Positions 5,876 through 36,260 of a stretch of DNA of 39,611 bases are shown piece by piece. Source of the stretch: a virus (taxonomy: Duplodnaviria > Caudoviricetes); IMG/VR virus record IMGVR_UViG_3300036798_000368, positions 1 to 39,611 of that record; one strand, 5' to 3'. The position numbers and the translations under genes were made by a program. Below the pieces are notes generated by a model. That model saw nothing but the letters and a program-made list of their open reading frames with translations, ran no database searches and was not told where the DNA came from. Numbering within the stretch: position 1 is the stretch's first letter; each line of letters begins with the position of its first letter.

Positions 5876-5950
5876 GCCACGGCACAACACGGCACTCCAC
5901 ATCACCGCACAACACGGCACAATACTGCACTGCACATCACGTCACAACAT
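5876..5950 (+). repeat. Array D: 15 x NN-CAC pentamers (putative stand-alone guide RNA)
   Basis: GCcac GGcac AAcac GGcac TCcac ATcac CGcac AAcac GGcac AAtac TGcac TGcac ATcac GTcac AAcat; strict 5-bp phase. Confidence 0.9.
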
Positions 5951-6138
5951 CACTTGCTTTTCCCGCGCATGGACCCCTTTCCCGAAGGCGCCGTCCGGCT
6001 GGCCGCGACTTGCCGCGGCGTCGAGGGCGAGTGCGCCTTGCTCGACGTCGGCGCGGCGTGCGCGCACATGTCGTTGACCGGCTTCGAATTCACCGCGGGC
6101 TTGGCGTAATGGTCGGGCTTGTCGGTGAGTTTAGGCAA
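5950..6138 (-). CDS. Small basic hypothetical protein
   Basis: AAAGGA RBS then TTG overlapping the lysozyme stop; ends ...SGKGSMRGKSK*. Confidence 0.55.
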   Translation of the reverse strand: MPKLTDKPDHYAKPAVNSKPVNDMCAHAAPTSSKAHSPSTPRQVAASRTAPSGKGSMRGKSK

Positions 6139-6574
6139 TTTCGATTCCTTTCTTGAACATCGCATATTCCTTCCGCCGCCGCCCCTGAATCTCCGGCGGC
6201 TTGTTCCAAAACAAAATGGCTTCCGCCGCGCTTAGATGGTCGCCAGCATTGAGCCGCTTGACGACGGTCGAGCTCTTGAAGCCGCCGGCGCCGATGTTGA
6301 AGGCCAGCGACACCAGCGCGTCGAATTGCATTTGCGAGATCGGTACCGTGACAGATTCATTCACCGCCTTTTCGAAATGCGCAAGATCGCGCGCCAAAAT
6401 CTCGTGCTCCTCGTCCCGTGTGATGGTCATCCCCGCACACGGCACCGGCGGGCTGCCGGCCTTCGCCGAATGGCCGATGCCGATCGTCCAGACCCCGACC
6501 GAGTCCTTGTAGGCGGTCAGCCTCGACCCCTCAACCTCGATCAGGTGCTTGCGTCCGGCAAGGCTCATATGCAT
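6131..6574 (-). CDS. Endolysin, GH24 phage lysozyme
   Basis: E-x8-D-x5-T catalytic triad (EGSRLTAYKDSVGVWT); FDALVSLAFNIG; GRRRKE. Confidence 0.93.
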   Translation of the reverse strand: MHMSLAGRKHLIEVEGSRLTAYKDSVGVWTIGIGHSAKAGSPPVPCAGMTITRDEEHEILARDLAHFEKAVNESVTVPISQMQFDALVSLAFNIGAGGFKSSTVVKRLNAGDHLSAAEAILFWNKPPEIQGRRRKEYAMFKKGIEIA

Positions 6575-20231: not shown

Positions 20232-21841
20232 CCAAGCAGGTTCCCGGTTTCGAAAAGCACATCAATATTGGTCAACCCGACCGAGGGCGTCGCGACCTGA
20301 TCGAAGGTCAATTGGATCACCGGCGAGATCGTCGCGCCGATGGCCGGCGCCGAAAGCCAGCCCTGCGCCAACACCGTCGTCGTCGGCCACACATCGACCC
20401 CCCACAGCGCCACCCCCCACTCCGCGCCGGTGAGCGTTTGCGGGGCCGCCGCCGGCGGCAGCGGGATCGTCTTGTCGTAATCGACTTTCATCGTGACTTG
20501 CGGGTTAACCGCGCCGAACGTCACCATCCGCGGCCGCGCCATCTTGGTTTGTTTCCGCTCCGCGCTTTGGGAGAGAGACGCGAAGTTGTAATCGGTCTTG
20601 GCCATGTCCGAATAGGACGGGAAGATCGTCATAGTGTACGGATGGCCATCGTCCTGGCCGCCGCTCTCGCCCTGCATCACCCTTCCGTCCGACGTGCCGT
20701 AAAGCAATTGGTCGTTGTTGCTGCCGCCGACCTCGAAGCATTGCGCGTCCCAGCCGACATAACGGCACCACGCGCCAGTGCGGCCATTGGCGACAAATTG
20801 GGTGTTCACGCTGGAGCCGACCTGCGGCAGATTAACGATCACCATCGTCTTCAGGGGCCATTCGAGGATTTGCCAATTGGTGAGCCCGGCGCGCGCCGCG
20901 ACCGCGCTCTGCCAGGCCGGCTGGATCGCGTTGGTGACCGCGGTATTCTGCAGCGCGATCTCCTCGGTCGTTGCGACCTGTGAGATCGCGACGATCCCGG
21001 CGACCGTCACGATCGCGAGATCGCCGCCCGCCTGCATCAGGCAGCGCGGCCCGACCGGCTGCGGAATCTTGTAGACCCCCATCAGGGACCAGGTCAGGGC
21101 CGGGGTGGTGCCGGAGAAGATCGCCGCCTCGCCCTGATCGGTGATGAACACGTTCGCGAACTGGAGGCCGCTCGCCGTCTGGATCGTCCAGGTACCCCCG
21201 GCGATGAGCGAGCCGCCGCGCTTGAAGATCGGCTGCATCGGATAGACCGAGATCGGGCCGCCGATCGCGCTGCCCGGCAGATACCAGGCATTGAGGGAAT
21301 TTCCCTGCAGCGCCCAGACGTTGCTCTCGAACACCCAGAGATAATTCAAAGGCGCTCCGGTGAGCCCGGTGATCGCCGGGGTTATCCCCCAGGAGGTGCC
21401 ATTGTAGAGCTGGACCGGATCGACGCCGTTGGCGGCCATCAGGGTCGGGGCGCCGCTCGCCGCGAAAAGGATATAGGAAAACGGCGCGCTCGGGTTCAGC
21501 CCGGAGACCAGCGCGGCGCCAACCGTCCCGAGACTGGTGACATCGTAAATATTCCCCTGGCAGGCGGCAAACAGCTTGTACACGCCATTGCCTCTATATG
21601 GCATAAGCGTGGTGACCACCGCGTTCGGCATACCGCTGGCGAACACCGAGGCGCCGCCGCGCGCGCGGACGAAATCGACCTCCGGGAAGGCGTTTTCTAA
21701 GAGAACCGCGGTCTGGTCCGGGGCGAGAGCCAAGGGGGCGCCGACATACCAGCCCTTGATCGGCGCGACGAGGGTCCGCGACACCGCGATTTGCGAACGC
21801 GGCTCTTGCTTGGATTTGTCGAGAAGGCCGGTCTGCAGCAT
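20228..21841 (-). CDS. Tail tube / packaged-DNA stabilisation protein (P22 gp10-like position)
   Basis: 537 aa, beta-rich; follows the head-tail adaptor. Confidence 0.65.
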   Translation of the reverse strand: MLQTGLLDKSKQEPRSQIAVSRTLVAPIKGWYVGAPLALAPDQTAVLLENAFPEVDFVRARGGASVFASGMPNAVVTTLMPYRGNGVYKLFAACQGNIYDVTSLGTVGAALVSGLNPSAPFSYILFAASGAPTLMAANGVDPVQLYNGTSWGITPAITGLTGAPLNYLWVFESNVWALQGNSLNAWYLPGSAIGGPISVYPMQPIFKRGGSLIAGGTWTIQTASGLQFANVFITDQGEAAIFSGTTPALTWSLMGVYKIPQPVGPRCLMQAGGDLAIVTVAGIVAISQVATTEEIALQNTAVTNAIQPAWQSAVAARAGLTNWQILEWPLKTMVIVNLPQVGSSVNTQFVANGRTGAWCRYVGWDAQCFEVGGSNNDQLLYGTSDGRVMQGESGGQDDGHPYTMTIFPSYSDMAKTDYNFASLSQSAERKQTKMARPRMVTFGAVNPQVTMKVDYDKTIPLPPAAAPQTLTGAEWGVALWGVDVWPTTTVLAQGWLSAPAIGATISPVIQLTFDQVATPSVGLTNIDVLFETGNLLG

Positions 21842-28525: not shown

Positions 28526-30373
28526 TCATCGTGGGCCAGCCCCCATTGCGCCGCTCGCCGGAACGGCGGCCGGCGGTCCCGCGCCGAGTCCCGGCCGGAT
28601 GGGCAGCGGCGGCCGCTGAGTCGGCGTCGGAAGCCCCGGCGCCGGCGCCGGGCTCGGCGCTGTGGGATCGGCGGCGGCCATTTGCAGGTGGCGCTGCGCC
28701 GCGAGATGGGCGAGCATCAAAGTGAGCCTGCTCGGCAATTTCATGTTGCTCATTTCCATGACCGTCGCCGGCGCGCAATATTGGGCGATGATCTGTCCGA
28801 CCAGCCTAGCGATGTCGCGGCAAAATCTCGCGATCTCGGTCTGCCGGTCCTTGATCCGCGTGCCGCCGTATTGCGCTTTGAGTTGCTGCGCCCCCTCGGT
28901 TTCCTGCGGATCGGTGGCGCCGCGCATGATATCCGAGATTCCGATGATCTGGTAGACGTCCTCAACCAATTGCTGGCGCAGCTTGATGCATCCTTCGAGC
29001 ACCGAGATCACTTGCTCGACCGGGACCCACACGATCGGCGCCGCCTTGCCGCCGCCGCCTTCCAGGAATTGCGAAAATCCCTGCACCGCGATCAATTTGT
29101 TCTCGAACCCTGGCGACATCGCCTTTTCGATCTCCGGCGAACCCTCGCCCTGCGGTCCGGCCGGATAGAAGCCGACGAGCTTTAAGGCGTCCGACAGGCC
29201 GCCGATCCGCGCCGTCAATTGATCGATCTCCTCGGCCTGATCTTGATAGAACACGAAGTCCGGCACCGGCACCAAGCTATCCGGCGACAACGTCCCATAG
29301 GCCGGTCGCGGGCAGGGATAAAATCCGTCGAGCTCGAGGTAAGGCTTGCCGCTTTCCAGGATTTCTGGATAGCCGGGCGACACCCACAGCACCTCGTTTT
29401 TCGCCTTGTCCCAGACCTCCCAGACCGCCGCCTTGCGGACCTGGCTGGCGCCGGCGGCGGTGCCCCGCTCGTCCTCGTCGGCCAATGGGTCGGCATCGAG
29501 GGCGATCTCCTTGCCGACCTTGGCGCCGAACCGCTTGGTAATTTCGGCCCGCGTCATATAGGCCCGGAACGCGACCCATTGGCACTCCGACCAGACCCGC
29601 GCCGGTTGATGCCGAAAATCCAATCGTTGGACGAACCTTATTCTGACATTCTCGAATTTGATCTTGCGCGGACTGCTTCCCGGTCCGCAGGGCTCATCGC
29701 GATCAGCTCCCGGGCGCGCGCCTGGAACAGCTCCAATTGCGCCTTGACCGCCGGGTAATCCGGGCATCCCGATGCCGCCAGCTCCTCCGCCAAGAGTTCC
29801 CAGAACACCGAGTCCGGGTGGTAAAATTCCGCCTCCTCCAAGGCCTCCAGCAAATCGGTCACCCGCGTTTCCGCCTGCTTGAGGAAGACCAGGGTTTTCC
29901 GGTCCTTGAATGATGCTTTCGGCACCTGAAATATCCTCGATCTGATCGTCCTCGGTCTCATATTCCGGCTCATAGTAAACTCTTGCGACGCCGCGCGCGT
30001 AGAGCAGGAAATCGTCGCGGACCATCTTGAACTCGGTGTCGAAGTCGGCGGCGTCAAAGGAAAAATTCACCGCCCGCTCGAGCACCTCGCCGGCTTGCCG
30101 GGCGATCGGGTCTTGATCGCGGTAGCGGCGCGACACCACGGCATGCGGCGGCTTGGCGTAGATCGCGCTCTGCATGGTCTGGACGTTCGACCACAACATC
30201 TGATATTTGCGGATTCTGACCAGCGCCGAGCCCTCGTAGAGGTAGCGCCGGCGGATGATCCGGCAGCGCTCCTCATAGCGCGACATCCCATCGTCCCTGC
30301 GGGAGTCCTCGAGGCGGGAGAGCCAGGTCCCGACGTCGTCGCTCGGGCAAAGATCGTTGTCATTAGCAGCCAT
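28526..30373 (-). CDS. Portal protein, N-terminal part
   Basis: LWSNVQT...YAKPP...VSRRY.D.DP; FYPCPRP..GT...PVPDF..YQDQA.EID.LT.RI; IIGISDIMRG; follows terL. Confidence 0.85.
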   Translation of the reverse strand: MAANDNDLCPSDDVGTWLSRLEDSRRDDGMSRYEERCRIIRRRYLYEGSALVRIRKYQMLWSNVQTMQSAIYAKPPHAVVSRRYRDQDPIARQAGEVLERAVNFSFDAADFDTEFKMVRDDFLLYARGVARVYYEPEYETEDDQIEDISGAESIIQGPENPGLPQAGGNAGDRFAGGLGGGGILPPGLGVLGTLGGGAGGIGMPGLPGGQGAIGAVPGARPGADRDEPCGPGSSPRKIKFENVRIRFVQRLDFRHQPARVWSECQWVAFRAYMTRAEITKRFGAKVGKEIALDADPLADEDERGTAAGASQVRKAAVWEVWDKAKNEVLWVSPGYPEILESGKPYLELDGFYPCPRPAYGTLSPDSLVPVPDFVFYQDQAEEIDQLTARIGGLSDALKLVGFYPAGPQGEGSPEIEKAMSPGFENKLIAVQGFSQFLEGGGGKAAPIVWVPVEQVISVLEGCIKLRQQLVEDVYQIIGISDIMRGATDPQETEGAQQLKAQYGGTRIKDRQTEIARFCRDIARLVGQIIAQYCAPATVMEMSNMKLPSRLTLMLAHLAAQRHLQMAAADPTAPSPAPAPGLPTPTQRPPLPIRPGLGAGPPAAVPASGAMGAGPR

Positions 30374-31722
30374 TATGCCCGCTCCCGCCTTTCCCGCTCC
30401 CGGTTGCCATAGGCGACATAATCACCGATCGTCAGCTCCTCGGTCGGAATGAACAGCGGCTTTGGTTCCGGCGTGATCTCCTTGCGGATCATTTTCCAGG
30501 CCATCGCCAAATACCGAAAAGCATCGGCGCCGTGCGAGGCCCAATCATGCTCGGCGACGTCCCGGAACACTCTGAGCCGCTCACTCCAATCCTGCCGGTA
30601 TTGGCGCAGCGCCTCGAGCCCGGCGGCGCACCTCTGGGCGTTGAACTTGGCGATTCTCAAGGTCATCTTGGCGGCATTGATCCCATCGTCGACGCTATGT
30701 TTTGGCACCAAACAAGGCTTCCGCCCGGCGGCGCGCAAGGTCTCCACCCTTGTCCGCCCGGTCTCGAACGAATGCACCTTGGCGTCGTGCGGCAGATAAT
30801 CGAATCCGTCATAGCCCAATTGGGTCAATTTGGCGATATAGTCGTCGAAATAATACCCTTGGACCTGGATGAAATCATGGATGAGCGGGCCGCGCTCACC
30901 GACCTGGAACGCCCAGATCGCCATGTTCGAGCCGTTGCCCAAGTCCCAGGCGCAATGCATCGGCGCCGGCAGCACCGGCAGATCGTCGACGAGGCGCCCC
31001 TCGATCTCGGCCTGCTGCATGTCCTTGCCGTAATAGGCGCCGAGAATCGCGGCATAGGGATCGCATTCGAATTCGGCGGCATAGGCCTCCGGCGTCATCA
31101 GGCGGCGCGCGTCCTCAAGCTCGGCCTCCGGCACGACGCCGGTCTCCGAGGCCTTCAGAAGCAGCGAGAACCAGGCCGGATCATGGGCGACGTTTTTGTA
31201 GAGTTGCCACAATTGGTTGCGGCCCTTGATCGTGCCGATGATCGTGGCAAAGCCGCCGCGGTCGGCGAGCATCGGCCGGATGATCTGGGTCCAGAGAGAC
31301 GGCGCGATGTCGGCGAATTCGTCCAAAACCGCGCCGTCCGAATAGGGGCCGCGCAAGGCGTCCGGATTGTCCGCCCCGAACAGGGTAATCCTAGAGCCGC
31401 CGAGGAGATCGACTCTGAGCTCGGCGATGTTCGGCGGGCAGGCCTGGACCGGCGCGGTGAATTGGGTGAGATAGTCCCACGCCACCGTCTTCGCCTGGTT
31501 GCGCAACGGCGCGATGTAGTGGAACCGCCCGGCCGGCTTTTTGAGGTCGAGGGCGAAATCGATCAGGTCCATCAGGCTCGCCACCGTCTTGCCGCTGCGC
31601 CGATGGGCGATCATGCAGGCCCAGCGTTGGGTGCGATGGTGGAAACCGCGGAAGATCTGGCGCGGCTGGTAGCCGAGCTTAATCTGCGGGGTCGGGGGAA
31701 TCACGGCGGTCTTACTTTCCAC
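30373..31722 (-). CDS. terL: Terminase large subunit
   Basis: Walker A HRRSGKT, Walker B AVLDE, nuclease WDLG...PHD...SHGADAFRY. Confidence 0.93.
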   Translation of the reverse strand: MESKTAVIPPTPQIKLGYQPRQIFRGFHHRTQRWACMIAHRRSGKTVASLMDLIDFALDLKKPAGRFHYIAPLRNQAKTVAWDYLTQFTAPVQACPPNIAELRVDLLGGSRITLFGADNPDALRGPYSDGAVLDEFADIAPSLWTQIIRPMLADRGGFATIIGTIKGRNQLWQLYKNVAHDPAWFSLLLKASETGVVPEAELEDARRLMTPEAYAAEFECDPYAAILGAYYGKDMQQAEIEGRLVDDLPVLPAPMHCAWDLGNGSNMAIWAFQVGERGPLIHDFIQVQGYYFDDYIAKLTQLGYDGFDYLPHDAKVHSFETGRTRVETLRAAGRKPCLVPKHSVDDGINAAKMTLRIAKFNAQRCAAGLEALRQYRQDWSERLRVFRDVAEHDWASHGADAFRYLAMAWKMIRKEITPEPKPLFIPTEELTIGDYVAYGNRERERRERA

Positions 31723-31790
31723 CTACAACAAAATGATTGATTGCGCGCAAGAAATCGTGAACAAGGTCCGACCAACAAAAGGAGCATGGC

Positions 31791-32123
31791 TTGTCGCCCG
31801 CAAAGAGAGTCCTCCAAGAGAAATATGGGAAACCACGCTCTATTTACGCTTTCGGGCTGAAAATGAGCCGCCGCGTAAAAAAAGCGCCCGATCGCGATCG
31901 CGATTGTTCCGCCGCAACGCGAGAGTACACTCTTTATCTTGTGCCGCTCTTGAGAGATGGTATTTACGATTACTGGGACTATTGCGTTATCGATCGTCTC
32001 TTCGAACTTGTCGGGACCACAGGCGTTGGGCGCATCTTCACTAAGTTGGGCCTGATCCATCAATTGATACATTGCCTTCGAGGGCGATTGAGCGATGAGA
32101 CCGTCAATTTCACTATCCACTAA
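31791..32123 (+). CDS. Hypothetical protein, antisense, inside the terS-terL insertion
   Basis: AGGAG RBS then TTG; AT-richer region; competing ORFs in other frames. Confidence 0.35.
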   Translation: MSPAKRVLQEKYGKPRSIYAFGLKMSRRVKKAPDRDRDCSAATREYTLYLVPLLRDGIYDYWDYCVIDRLFELVGTTGVGRIFTKLGLIHQLIHCLRGRLSDETVNFTIH

Positions 32124-32134
32124 GGACCCCCTCC

Positions 32135-32386
32135 ATGGCACCTCACACCCACTGGAAAACATCGAACAATGGTAACGACTTCATCCTCACCGTCACCGGC
32201 GGCCGGTTCACCGTGCTAGCCGAAACGCCGGAAGGGCCGGTTTTGCTGATGCACGAGAATTTCGACACCCCCAAAGAATGCAAGGCGTACGCCGAGCGAT
32301 TGGTCTTGCTCGTCGCCATCGACAGGCTGCGCCAGCGCCGCGATGACGACGACGAGCCGCCGCCGGCACTTGCCGTAGCCGCATAA
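32135..32386 (+). CDS. Hypothetical protein, antisense, inside the terS-terL insertion
   Basis: AAGGA RBS then ATG; converges on 32390-32887. Confidence 0.55.
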   Translation: MAPHTHWKTSNNGNDFILTVTGGRFTVLAETPEGPVLLMHENFDTPKECKAYAERLVLLVAIDRLRQRRDDDDEPPPALAVAA

Positions 32387-32389
32387 AGA

Positions 32390-32887
32390 TCACTGATCTG
32401 CTGGATCATTGCCTTTTGGTCGCACTCCCAGGATCGCGAAGGCCCGCTCGGCGCCATCGATTACCGCGATCTCGACCTGGGTTTTCAGCCGCCGCGTCGA
32501 CAAGGTCTCGAGGGCGCGCTCGTTCCAGATCGTATAGAACGAATGCGCCCGCGCCTGCTCGAGCGAAAGCACCTCCGTCTTTTCGTCCTTGAGAAAGCCC
32601 TGCAGCCGCTTGACCTGGCGCTCGGCCTTTTTAAATCCGCTCGGATAGCTCGTGGTTATCTCGCCCGGCATCAGGCGCTTCAATCCGACCTTGGGAATGG
32701 CGCGGAAATGGATGCCGAAGGTCCGCCGCAGATAGCCGCGCGCGCTGGCGATCTTGCCGTCCGCCCCGTGCGGGACGCGCGCCCCGGCGAGATCGGCGAG
32801 GGTCGAGCGCGCAATGCTTTCGCCCTCGTTCAGCGCCTGCAGCGCATCGATGATCTTGGAGGTGGCCTCGGAACGGGTCGGGATCAT
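32390..32887 (-). CDS. Putative winged-helix accessory protein of the RAMP/array locus
   Basis: AAAGGAG RBS directly after array C; IIDAL...EGESIARSTLADLAG...GIHFRAIPKVGLKRL. Confidence 0.6.
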   Translation of the reverse strand: MIPTRSEATSKIIDALQALNEGESIARSTLADLAGARVPHGADGKIASARGYLRRTFGIHFRAIPKVGLKRLMPGEITTSYPSGFKKAERQVKRLQGFLKDEKTEVLSLEQARAHSFYTIWNERALETLSTRRLKTQVEIAVIDGAERAFAILGVRPKGNDPADQ

Positions 32888-32904
32888 GATGGTTCTCCTT
32901 TACG

Positions 32905-33214
32905 ATGCCGTGTCGTGTTGTGGGGTGCAGTGTCGTGGGGTGAAGTGCCGTGTCGTGGGGTGGGGTGATGTGATGTGTGATGGGGTGTTGTGCCGTGTCG
33001 TGCTGTGGGGTGTCGTGTTGTGAAGTGATGTGAAGTGCTGTGCGGTATAGTGATGTCGCGTGGGGTGCTGTGTGGTGATGTGGGGTGCAGTAGCGTCCTG
33101 TGTTGTGTTGTGGCGTGCGGTGTCGTGTGGGGATGTGGGGTGGCGTGCGGTATCGTGGCGTGGGGTGCAGTGCGGTGGCGTGCTGTGAAGTGACGTGGCG
33201 TAGCGTGGCGTGCT
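32905..33214 (-). repeat. Array C: 62 x NN-CAC pentamers (putative guide RNA array)
   Basis: GTGNN on + strand in unbroken 5-bp phase over 310 bp; starts 4 nt after the RAMP stop. Confidence 0.92.
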
Positions 33215-33218
33215 GACA

Positions 33219-33797
33219 TTACGTCGCGCCTGTTGGAGTTTCGGACCAGACGAATTTGGTGCATTTGAAGCGGCCGCTCGAGCCGCCGTTCTCCGGCCGG
33301 TTCTGGCCGACCCCGACGAGCAGCCCAGCCTCGTTCGCATGCTGCTCGAACACCGCCGGGGTGATCGTCTCGTCGACGACGATCACCTCGAGCTCGCCGC
33401 GCCAGGCCTTGACCTCCGGGAAAAACCGCACCACCCGCTTGCCGGAGCCGGCGACGCCATCGGCGTTGCAGCTCACCGCGATGCGGCCGACTTTCTCCTT
33501 CTTTTGGCCGACCGGAACACCAGCGGGCACCATCACGCCGGCCATGAAATGCTTAGTGTAGGTCGCCTTGCCGCGGTTCTTGATCTGGATCGACAGCATC
33601 TTGGCGGCGCGGTCGAAGGCTTTTTTGAACGCCGCCGCCGGGATCATGATTTCGCCATTGCCGTCGGTCGTGCATTTCTCCCGCCAGGTCCGCTCCTCAT
33701 AGGCGTCGGGGCCTTCTTTCTCTAGCTTCTCAGTAAAGTGCTGGCGGCTCTGGTAATAGGGCGCCCGCGATTCCATTGTGATCATGCATTTTTTCAT
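33219..33797 (-). CDS. Stand-alone RAMP/Cas7-like protein (192 aa)
   Basis: N-terminal beta strand, IMIPAAAFKKAF (cf. RAMP IPxSxxKG), W.G.L.V strand, Gly-rich loop AGLLVGVGQNRPENGGSSGRF; AAAGGAG RBS; flanked by arrays. Confidence 0.75.
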   Translation of the reverse strand: MKKCMITMESRAPYYQSRQHFTEKLEKEGPDAYEERTWREKCTTDGNGEIMIPAAAFKKAFDRAAKMLSIQIKNRGKATYTKHFMAGVMVPAGVPVGQKKEKVGRIAVSCNADGVAGSGKRVVRFFPEVKAWRGELEVIVVDETITPAVFEQHANEAGLLVGVGQNRPENGGSSGRFKCTKFVWSETPTGAT

Positions 33798-33811
33798 GTT
33801 TCAGCTCCTTT

Positions 33812-34116
33812 GTGTTGTGACGTGCGGTGCAGTGAAGTGGAGTGCTGTGGGGTGCAGGGCCGTGTGGTGCTGTGTTGTGCCGTGGCGTGACGTGCCGAGT
33901 TGTGTCGTGCCGGGTCGTGCCGCGATGTGCAGTGACGTGGGGTGACGTGAGGTGCGGTGCTGTGGCGCGATGTGCAGTGCTGTGATGTGGCGTGATGTGA
34001 TGTGGAGTAGAGTGTGGTGCGGTGTGTTGATGTGATGTGGAGTGGCGTGAGGTGCCGTGACGTGAGGTGCCGTGCAGTGTCGTGCGGTAAGGTGCAGTGC
34101 AGTGCAGTGGCGTGAG
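33812..34116 (-). repeat. Array B: 61 x NN-CAC pentamers (putative guide RNA array)
   Basis: Unbroken 5-bp phase over 305 bp; ends directly in the RBS of the RAMP gene. Confidence 0.92.
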
Positions 34117-34126
34117 GGGAGAATCA

Positions 34127-34336
34127 TCATGGCGAAGGATCCTCCTCCGGATCGAGCGCATCCGCCCCGGTCGGCTCGAGGAGCCGCGTCAGGATCGCGA
34201 CCACCGCCCGGTCGACATCGCGCTCGAGCCCTTTCGCCCGGGTCAGGCCCTCCATGCTGCGCTCGCGAAAATATTCCTTCTGGGCATCCCGCATGCGGCG
34301 CACCAGCAGCGCCAAATCCCGTAGCTCGGTGTTCAT
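34127..34336 (-). CDS. Small helical hypothetical protein between arrays A and B
   Basis: LVRRMRDAQKEYFR...AKGLERDVD. Confidence 0.65.
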   Translation of the reverse strand: MNTELRDLALLVRRMRDAQKEYFRERSMEGLTRAKGLERDVDRAVVAILTRLLEPTGADALDPEEDPSP

Positions 34337-34360
34337 GATGTCAAACCTCGCGCTCCTATT

Positions 34361-34525
34361 GTGTTGTGTCGTGCAGTGCCGTGCCGTGACGTGCCGTGGT
34401 GTGATGTGACATGTTGCGACGTGACGTGGCGTGAGGTGGCGTGGAGTGGAGTGCGGTGCGGTGCCGTGGCGTCCTGTGATGTGCTGTGGGGTGCGGTGCG
34501 GTGCAGTGTTGTGATGTGACGTGAT
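34361..34525 (-). repeat. Array A: 33 x NN-CAC pentamers (putative guide RNA array)
   Basis: Unbroken 5-bp phase; starts 15 nt after the terS stop; followed by AATAGGAG. Confidence 0.92.
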
Positions 34526-34540
34526 GAAAAGCGGGCATCG

Positions 34541-34876
34541 TCAGGATCGAACTCCGGTCAAAACGTTGACGATTATCGTTTGCCGCGGGTCGCTGCTATC
34601 GCCGTCGAACGGCGCCGGCCTTCCCCAGGCATAGGCCAGAACATCCCGACACGCCGCCGCGCGCACCGTCTCGACCTTGGCATGGAGTGCCAACCTAATA
34701 AGTTCCGCCGCCACCTTCGGCGCCGCGTCGATCGCGAGCTGACGCCCTAGCCGCTCCGAGAGCTTGCCGAGCGGCCGGCCGCCCTTCTTGCCGTTTTCCG
34801 CCGAGGCCTTGGCCTTGGCCGCCGAGGCGCCTTCGAACGGCTTAAAATGCCGCGTTCCGGGCAGGCTTCCGGTCAT
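34541..34876 (-). CDS. terS: Probable terminase small subunit
   Basis: ENGKKGGRP, ELIRLAL.AK.ETVR.AA...AWGRP, C-terminal IIVNVLTGV; first late gene, upstream of terL once the insertion is removed. Confidence 0.6.
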   Translation of the reverse strand: MTGSLPGTRHFKPFEGASAAKAKASAENGKKGGRPLGKLSERLGRQLAIDAAPKVAAELIRLALHAKVETVRAAACRDVLAYAWGRPAPFDGDSSDPRQTIIVNVLTGVRS

Positions 34877-35564: not shown

Positions 35565-36260
35565 TCAGGTCTCCTTTGGCACCTTGGCGCCAAACAGCTG
35601 TTTGGCGGCGGGCGAAAATTGCACCGGCTGGTCGCGATAGGCGGCGAGCTTCGCCTCGTCGAGCGCCGGGATGGTCGCGTCTCCATTGCCCGGCCGATCT
35701 CTGGCCTTTTTCGCCTTGCTTTGCGCGCTAGCCCGCCTCTCCAGCGGGCGCGGCGACGCGCGCGGCATTCTGGTAGAAAGATTCAGATTAGACTCTGGTT
35801 CTGGTAGTGGGGGGAAATTTTGCTTGGATTTTTGCTTGAAATTTTGCTTGGATTTTGCTTGAGGTTTTGCTTGAGGTTTTGCTTGGCGCACCACCGTTGA
35901 TTTTATTCCACCTTCCCGCCCAGATGCCACCCTTTCCCTGGCTTTTTTCAGCTCACGTTCTACGCGATTATGGCGCCACATTCCGATGGGGTTATCGGGG
36001 GGTATATCGGGGGGTATATCGGGGGGTATATCGGGGGGTATATTCTCAAAGTACCCTTCCAGAAATGGCCGTAAGCGCTTCCATTTGTTGACATGCACGC
36101 GAACCAGCCTAGCTAAAGTTTTATCGTCGGAAAAAAGAGGGCCACCGTTTGTCCAATAGGAATCAATTAGGCGCCGATAGGCCCCGTCTTGTTCAAGCGA
36201 AAGGGCCATCGTGTCGCGCAAATAATCGCCCGGATAAAACGGGAAATGATTGAGGCTCAT
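35565..36260 (-). CDS. DUF1376/YdaU-type replication initiator
   Basis: FPFYPGDYLRDTMALSLEQDGAYRRLIDSYW..GGPL; internal iterons. Confidence 0.82.
   Translation of the reverse strand: MSLNHFPFYPGDYLRDTMALSLEQDGAYRRLIDSYWTNGGPLFSDDKTLARLVRVHVNKWKRLRPFLEGYFENIPPDIPPDIPPDIPPDNPIGMWRHNRVERELKKARERVASGREGGIKSTVVRQAKPQAKPQAKSKQNFKQKSKQNFPPLPEPESNLNLSTRMPRASPRPLERRASAQSKAKKARDRPGNGDATIPALDEAKLAAYRDQPVQFSPAAKQLFGAKVPKET
35818..35885. repeat. 6 x TTTTGCTTG iteron-like repeats (candidate origin)
   Basis: Copies at 35818, 35830, 35842, 35853, 35865 and 35877. Confidence 0.75.
35993..36040. repeat. 4 x 12-bp tandem repeat TATCGGGGGGTA
   Basis: Perfect tandem copies encoding IPPD x4. Confidence 0.85.

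Follow-up and report, generated by a model that had tools for sequence, protein, structure and literature searches.

A CAC/NN pentamer array beside a likely phage terS gene as a predicted VIPR guide against sibling phages

The window analysed here is the whole 39,611 nucleotide virus record IMGVR_UViG_3300036798_000368 of IMG/VR (Duplodnaviria; Caudoviricetes), a soil phage, and it harbours a locus that its sequence identifies as a VIPR system of the CAC/NN type. VIPR, a gene-silencing system of phages that is related to CRISPR, was described in 2026 and comprises Vipr, vap and vrRNA, according to the available text of two preprints (10.64898/2026.04.26.720920, 10.64898/2026.04.26.720927). Next to the likely terS gene, the locus carries an array of 33 units, each composed of two variable nucleotides followed by CAC (array A; 34361..34525, minus strand), of which units 21-31 (34371..34425, minus strand) spell a terS end nearer to the allele of a sibling phage than to the phage's own. 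These units are predicted to act as a VIPR guide RNA, directed to the sibling terS 3' end and its stop codon, that silences sibling phages, a reading to which a probability of about 70% is assigned.

Units 21-31 and the ends of terS genes

Read from 34425 to 34371, units 21-31 carry the variable pairs GT GT AA GT AT AC GG GT GG GG TG, exactly as decoded in a preliminary description of this DNA, which had also correctly read the end of the adjacent gene as IVNVLTGVRS*. This gene, the likely terS of 111 aa (34541..34876, minus strand), has a weak match to phrog_2538, terminase small subunit (E 0.0038), and its last 11 codons including the stop (34573-34541, minus strand) constitute the version of the guide target that this phage itself carries, with mismatches: 14/16 letters agree when 8 units are compared and 17/22 when all 11 are, the TG unit falling on the real TGA stop. 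With one base skipped after each pair, 16/2000 shuffles reach the score of this match in the 300 nt beside the array, as compared to 315/500, 500/500 and 57/500 at the other skips. At the scale of the window the own terS match is unremarkable, a better 8-unit match (15/16 vs 14/16) being present at 21138; the latter falls inside the shuffle range and was rejected as a target, and the terS resemblance is above chance only because of its adjacency to the array. When arrays are shuffled, a check that the preliminary description had put forward, the match beside the array is rarely reached and, for the sibling described below, never.

This sibling, L001, is the closest relative (terL 94% identical), and its terS ends in VINVVTGVRG-TGA, which agrees with units 21-31 at 19/22 letters, a score that is reached by 0/2000 shuffles. 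The L001 terS end is also the top match for units 21-33 among 102 terL-family loci (0/30 shuffles). Two of its three mismatches place a guide G against a target A and could pair as G-T, provided that such pairing is tolerated, as we infer. Three more terS relatives (L015-L017) end in TGVRG-TAG and agree with the guide at 18/22, with unrelated DNA downstream. The terS C-terminal motif is conserved. Of 159 terS-like proteins, 27 have a TGV tail, 12 end in TGVRG* and 2 in TGVRGP*, while TGVRS occurs only in this phage and in P0002; in these two the final sense codon, which encodes G across most of the family, has changed to S, away from the guide. A contig from run X2 carrying a variant of array A appears, from a 30-nt loose end, to have a P0002-like terS end. 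Considering that the L001 terS ends in TGVRG-TGA and agrees at 19/22, the guide tail GG TG represents the family's last codon (glycine) and stop. A relaxed terS-end pattern gave 10 matches in GTDB genomes, approximately the number expected by chance, none of which is terS-end-like when translated.

It is extremely improbable that units 21-31 aim elsewhere and resemble terS by accident. Such an accident would be in line with the equal or better matches elsewhere in the window and with a first scan of 14 loci, in which 5/30 whole-array shuffles reached the L001 score, but it is difficult to reconcile with the shuffles at the L001 terS end and among the 102 loci, with a stop codon in register and with two further neighbour matches in the same phage family.

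The self-match of 17/22 could also be taken to bind weakly and to tune the phage's own packaging operon, an autoregulation to which both the above-chance self-match and the position of the array at the head of the packaging genes would be suited. Against this, sibling alleles fit better, the last sense codon has changed from G to S away from the guide here and in P0002, and the guides published in the available text of the VIPR paper have no self-match at its line of 80% for guide matches (10.64898/2026.04.26.720920); autoregulation is consequently regarded as improbable. When this line is applied to letters, the sibling passes (86%) and self fails (77%), whereas both fail when whole units are counted (8/11 and 7/11, respectively), and the available wording of the paper fits either count.

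A guide in the opposite direction is predicted in L001, where an orphan array of 15 CAC units (L001:7323-7397) lies between terL and portal, at a site which is empty in this phage, its terL (30373..31704, minus strand; phrog_2, E 5.7e-31) overlapping the portal start (TAATG). Units 1-12 of the L001 array, read with wobble bases skipped, match the opposite strand of the terL 3' end, and their predicted target in this phage (30494..30529, plus strand) agrees at 21/24 letters, as compared to 22/24 in L002 and L007 and 18/24 in L001 itself. The score for this phage's terL is reached by 0/2000 shuffles and that for self by 20/2000. The guide aims at the common DAFRYLAMAWK end of terL, with at least 21/24 in 11/91 terL loci. 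Array A is in turn missing in L001, as the L001 array is missing here. Run X2 contains a contig identical to L001, maybe its source, together with sibling contigs covering vipr, the gene of 165 aa described below and array A, which indicates that array-bearing and L001 types occur in one soil sample; because of its identity to L001, the array-less contig was not counted as a second sibling. In run X1, one contig skips array A. The absence of vipr from the partial records L001, L002, L003 and L007 is uninformative, these fragments being 12-76% complete.

The preliminary description had located the target differently, proposing that the guide reads the insertion-free terS|terL junction of relatives (TGVGG), and that the 2.8 kb insert splits this site and so protects the phage's own genome, as in intron homing. 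The supposed terL side, GTA GGT GGA, is indeed present at 31726-31718 (31718..31726, minus strand), with GT.GG.GG occurring once in the insert, 22 nt upstream of the likely terL start. The fused junction scores 18/20 over 10 units, as compared to 17/20 for L001, and an equally good tail rarely arises by accident, being present in 1.3-2.9% of random windows of 40-100 nt and at 0/24 other open reading frame (ORF) starts, which is the strongest point for the junction. Over the 11 units originally decoded, however, the junction scores 18/22, as TG meets AAG, and L001 scores 19/22. That the nine bases are a conserved terL flank was not confirmed; they are positioned outside the block common to L001 and L018, which begins at 31674, and were not retained within the target. 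terL likely starts at GTG 31704, homologous to the ATG of L001, so that the fused terS would not overlap it as had been suggested. TGVGG is found in 0/159 terS-like proteins and at 0/91 terL starts (93 loci minus 2 without enough upstream DNA), where the best junction score is 15/22 and where, of 12 adjacent ORFs with a TGV tail, 10 read on as TGVPR; the preliminary description had itself named such a lack of TGVGG as refuting its reading. A search of IMG/VR for the exact fused pattern of 10 units gave 0 matches, and among the 15 joints listed from the two runs none connects a terS end to a terL start. L001 lacks both array A and vipr between terS and terL, yet its terS is ≈1.8 kb from terL, being followed by an ORF of 69 aa and then one of 519 aa; as the 69-aa ORF adjoins terS in L001, the real empty site is terS|69-aa ORF. 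Moreover, the 11-codon site including the stop is intact and contiguous in this phage, where it differs by point changes, and self-protection is not by interruption. The junction reading is thus largely refuted at the sequence level and considered very unlikely. What stands of the homing-like locus that had been proposed is the layout, the skip-one-base guide and the aim at the terS of relatives, while the junction target and the interruption do not. The locus accordingly lacks the feature of intron-type homing, a target lying across the insertion junction that only empty alleles have intact, and shows the layout of free-standing homing endonucleases, with an insert between conserved genes, empty in relatives, and a target in the neighbouring gene.

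The vipr gene, its arrays and the reading code

On the minus strand, the likely terS is followed by array A, the 69-aa ORF (34127..34336; phrog_15937; separated from terS by a spacer of ≈18 nt in L001), array B (62 NN+CAC units; 33812..34121), vipr (192 aa; 33219..33797), array C (62 NN+CAC units; 32905..33214) and an ORF of 165 aa (32390..32887), with ≈0.7 kb of small ORFs without assignment between the latter and terL/portal. The 192-aa protein has 371 homologs, and a profile of 118 of these has a single PDB sequence match, the SUSP1 Vipr 36pp_D (E 2.2e-6). Its structure is predicted with a mean local distance difference test score (pLDDT) of 94.7, and Foldseek matches are Cas7/Csm3 folds, in agreement with a Cas7/RAMP-like fold. 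A single-sequence vipr scan retrieved no relative, whereas an alignment-based scan did. No further cas-like match was obtained among 13 proteins scanned in the region, vipr being a stand-alone RAMP/Vipr gene outside a CRISPR locus.

The 165-aa ORF is likely the vap accessory gene, as its homologs are located directly after vipr in 7/80 vipr loci. It has a winged-helix resemblance below threshold only, no Pfam or PHROG match and no detected nuclease domain. No recognisable nuclease family was identified in vipr, the 165-aa ORF, the 69-aa ORF or three small insert ORFs, an unrecognised nuclease being possible. Neither vipr nor the 165-aa ORF has a match in 50,697 phage records (0 matches; no cultured isolate), and a promoter/terminator scan gave signals no better than chance.

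Period-5 arrays occur on the vipr strand in 65/80 homolog loci of IMG/VR, with CGC (40), CAC (11), GGC (9) or GAC (5) as the fixed trimer, and the RNA strand of the arrays studied here was assigned because homolog arrays run on the vipr strand. Within one Vipr clade (L019-L098), at least four fixed trimers (CGC, CAC, GGC, GAC) are in use. The arrays of the window follow the VIPR scheme of pentamers with a fixed trimer and a variable pair, in the form CAC/NN and not the canonical GGY, with exact CAC in 30/37 parsed units of array A and in 53/64 and 53/65 units of the other arrays. As in VIPR, the code skips one nucleotide: only the 1-nt skip beats shuffles in 5/5 tests, the codon frame being kept and the skipped base being the wobble position. 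Skips of 0, 2 and 3 nt gave no signal and were rejected as reading rules.

In many arrays the final unit or the final two units are AA (34361-34370 and 33812-33816 in the window; also in L028, L039 and L041), and these may represent a constant tail and not targeting letters. The first five units of array A (34525-34501) decode to IVINW, contained in 0/159 of the fetched terS-like proteins; presumably this resembles the C-termini of other terS families. An orphan array D of 15 CAC units (5876..5950, plus strand) is located 27 kb from the other arrays, beside a convergent ORF (5950-6165, minus strand), the end of which it matches over 6 units at 12/12 before falling out of register (2/2000 shuffles), because the array spells one codon more than the phage's own allele. 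The array D pattern has 0 matches in IMG/VR and no better sibling allele was found; its target is unproven, because the sole homolog of the neighbouring ORF ends differently. Elsewhere in the window, a DUF1376 replication gene (35793-36047) contains internal tandem repeats of 11-12 nt, which are ordinary in replication genes of this kind.

Neighbour targeting in other loci

When 198 distinct arrays were compared with their own 400-nt flanks, 12 matched at skip 1, 3 at skip 0 and 2 at skip 2 (p<=0.01). A repeat with 500 shuffles yielded 13 matching arrays, corresponding to 7/27 of those located >1 kb from vipr and 6/171 of those located closer. Seven of the 13 are from one family (L028/L039/L041), in which guide cassettes present in one sibling are missing or replaced in another, and in which four guides match the sibling's allele of the neighbouring gene with scores of 19-25.5, well above what chance gives. 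Overall, sibling-allele scores of at least 16 were obtained for 7/198 arrays vs 1/198 shuffles, and among ten guides hand-picked from the results the sibling allele is better in 7. The neighbour pattern is real but bound to lineages; as a rule for all CAC arrays, neighbour targeting was rejected (1/86, see below).

Some arrays deserve separate mention. In-frame CGC arrays are situated inside an SNF2-family helicase gene, between two Pfam domains (L039:5197-5256, L041:2222-2306, L028:8589-8648), and the L041 guide agrees at 27/28 with the L039 helicase allele just upstream, vs 22/28 with self. A canonical GGC array (L042:15724-15803) ends 12 nt before a gene, the start of which it resembles as a foreign allele; judging by a motif, this gene may encode an HNH nuclease. 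A 70-unit CAC array located 12 nt from vipr (L162:2499-2848) has a 12-unit near-match ≈50 nt upstream, at the vipr end, and is possibly an anti-vipr guide.

Several observations weigh against the proposed silencing of siblings. No exact target of the guide was found, the best being 19/22 letters (8/11 whole units) in L001, as compared to 17/22 (7/11) for self, a margin of 2 letters. For units 1-20 of array A and for arrays B, C and D no target was detected in the 102 terL-family loci (4/30, 7/12, 1/12 and 5/30 shuffles, respectively, reach the score). The W..S terL variant of L001 is present in 4 other phages (5/46 parsed), and the ten hand-picked guides include 2 ties and 1 case in which the own allele is the best fit. 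In an independent set, 1/86 CAC arrays and 0/14 orphans match their neighbour, with no enrichment (86 arrays from 132 loci, after removal of duplicates, first-set arrays, arrays of <9 units and flanks of <200 nt), and neighbour matches outside the two families amount to 5/163. Finally, the footprints are no more diverged than other windows of the same genes (91/430, 18/102, 150/445 and 88/442 windows reach the count), and directed recoding of footprints is not supported by this comparison. Since footprints are not hot spots and the terL variant occurs in other phages, guides may exploit standing allele differences and not force recoding.

The background level of footprint divergence, the missing exact target and the adjacency of array and gene would also suit a relic of guide birth, in which nearby DNA, either of the phage's own ancestor or of a sibling recombining with it, was the source of the array, which has since drifted and now has no effect on rivals. 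A relic would not be expected to keep a wobble-skipping register, exact CAC in 30/37 parsed units and an intact vipr, nor to fit the sibling allele better in 7 of the ten picked guides, and this explanation is deemed unlikely.

Predicted mechanism and comparison with known systems

In SUSP1, the RNA is coated by Vipr protomers, one per pentamer, and of each three target bases two are read by an NN pair. Bound to double-stranded DNA, on either strand, the complex represses transcription and does not cut, as stated in the available text (10.64898/2026.04.26.720920, 10.64898/2026.04.26.720927). By analogy, array A would be transcribed together with vipr, Vipr would coat the array RNA, and the complex would bind double-stranded DNA and block transcription without cleavage. 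During co-infection, the complex positioned at the rival's terS end would silence terS together with the terL-portal genes behind it, and the own allele would be spared by the 5/22 letters that differ. The guide lies ≈115-170 nt from the own allele, a position likely explained by tight linkage, through which guide and immune allele would stay together despite recombination. As the terS C-terminal motif is conserved, escape would cost amino-acid changes. Packaging specificity is often determined by TerS, from which the carrier of the guide would gain an advantage in cis. The logic would be that of free-standing homing endonucleases, by repression instead of cleavage.

Only tentatively, and with more doubt than confidence, do we extend this to a natural, nuclease-free, RNA-guided allele drive among sibling phages, formed by a guide and its adjacent immune allele: guide cassettes of 90-190 nt, inserted beside essential genes, would shut down the rival's allele whenever two such phages share a cell and would spread together with the allele of their carrier. 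This phage and L001 would then form a reciprocal pair (anti-terS vs anti-terL), in which the orphan guide of L001 would turn this phage's Vipr against it.

The locus resembles the type II VIPR of SUSP1, as presented in the available text, in that a phage carries a lone RAMP gene with one likely accessory gene, in its pentamer arrays, and in a code that skips one nucleotide at the wobble base, with predicted targets on either strand in competing phages (10.64898/2026.04.26.720920, 10.64898/2026.04.26.720927). It differs from SUSP1 in its trimer (CAC as opposed to GGY), in its unbroken runs of 33-62 units as opposed to separate RNAs of 9-16 units, and in its predicted target, which is a sibling's core packaging gene beside the guide insertion site and not a satellite or a lysis-lysogeny regulator. 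CAC/NN arrays, with this repeat unit beside a Vipr-like fold as here, have already been reported; in the available text of that report no targets were decoded, whereas the 1-nt-skip rule fits the CAC arrays statistically in this work (10.64898/2026.10.21.760802). Orphan guides such as array D and that of L001 are comparable to the solo vrRNAs of VIPR-null SUSP1-family phages, being aimed at relatives with a self-match below the non-self match; the solo vrRNAs are described in the available text as targeting vipr, vrRNAs, satellites and REP elements, unlike the terS/terL ends beside the guide, reciprocal between siblings, that are predicted here (10.64898/2026.10.15.759431). Targeting of neighbouring genes or of terminase was not found in the available published text, and the supplementary target tables of the preprints may list such targets; in both VIPR biology preprints, as far as their available text extends, 'homing' occurs 0 times, and 'terminase' is absent from one (0 times) and occurs twice in the second, where it is shown in the methods only (10.64898/2026.04.26.720920, 10.64898/2026.10.15.759431).

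What the present locus adds is the reciprocal sibling guide pair, and with it a natural guide-target pair for CAC-type VIPR, whose two real alleles allow a direct test of the skip-one code and of how many mismatches set self apart from rival. The free-standing homing endonucleases of T4, known for intronless homing and marker exclusion, are similar in that an element between conserved genes has its target in the relatives' neighbouring gene, apart from the insertion site; they differ, according to the available text, in that the T4 elements spread through break repair and gene conversion, while no nuclease was detected here and recognition would be by RNA (PMC2988022). If the linkage model is true, VIPR guides would shape the inheritance of core phage gene alleles in the manner of the T4 homing endonucleases, but by silencing.

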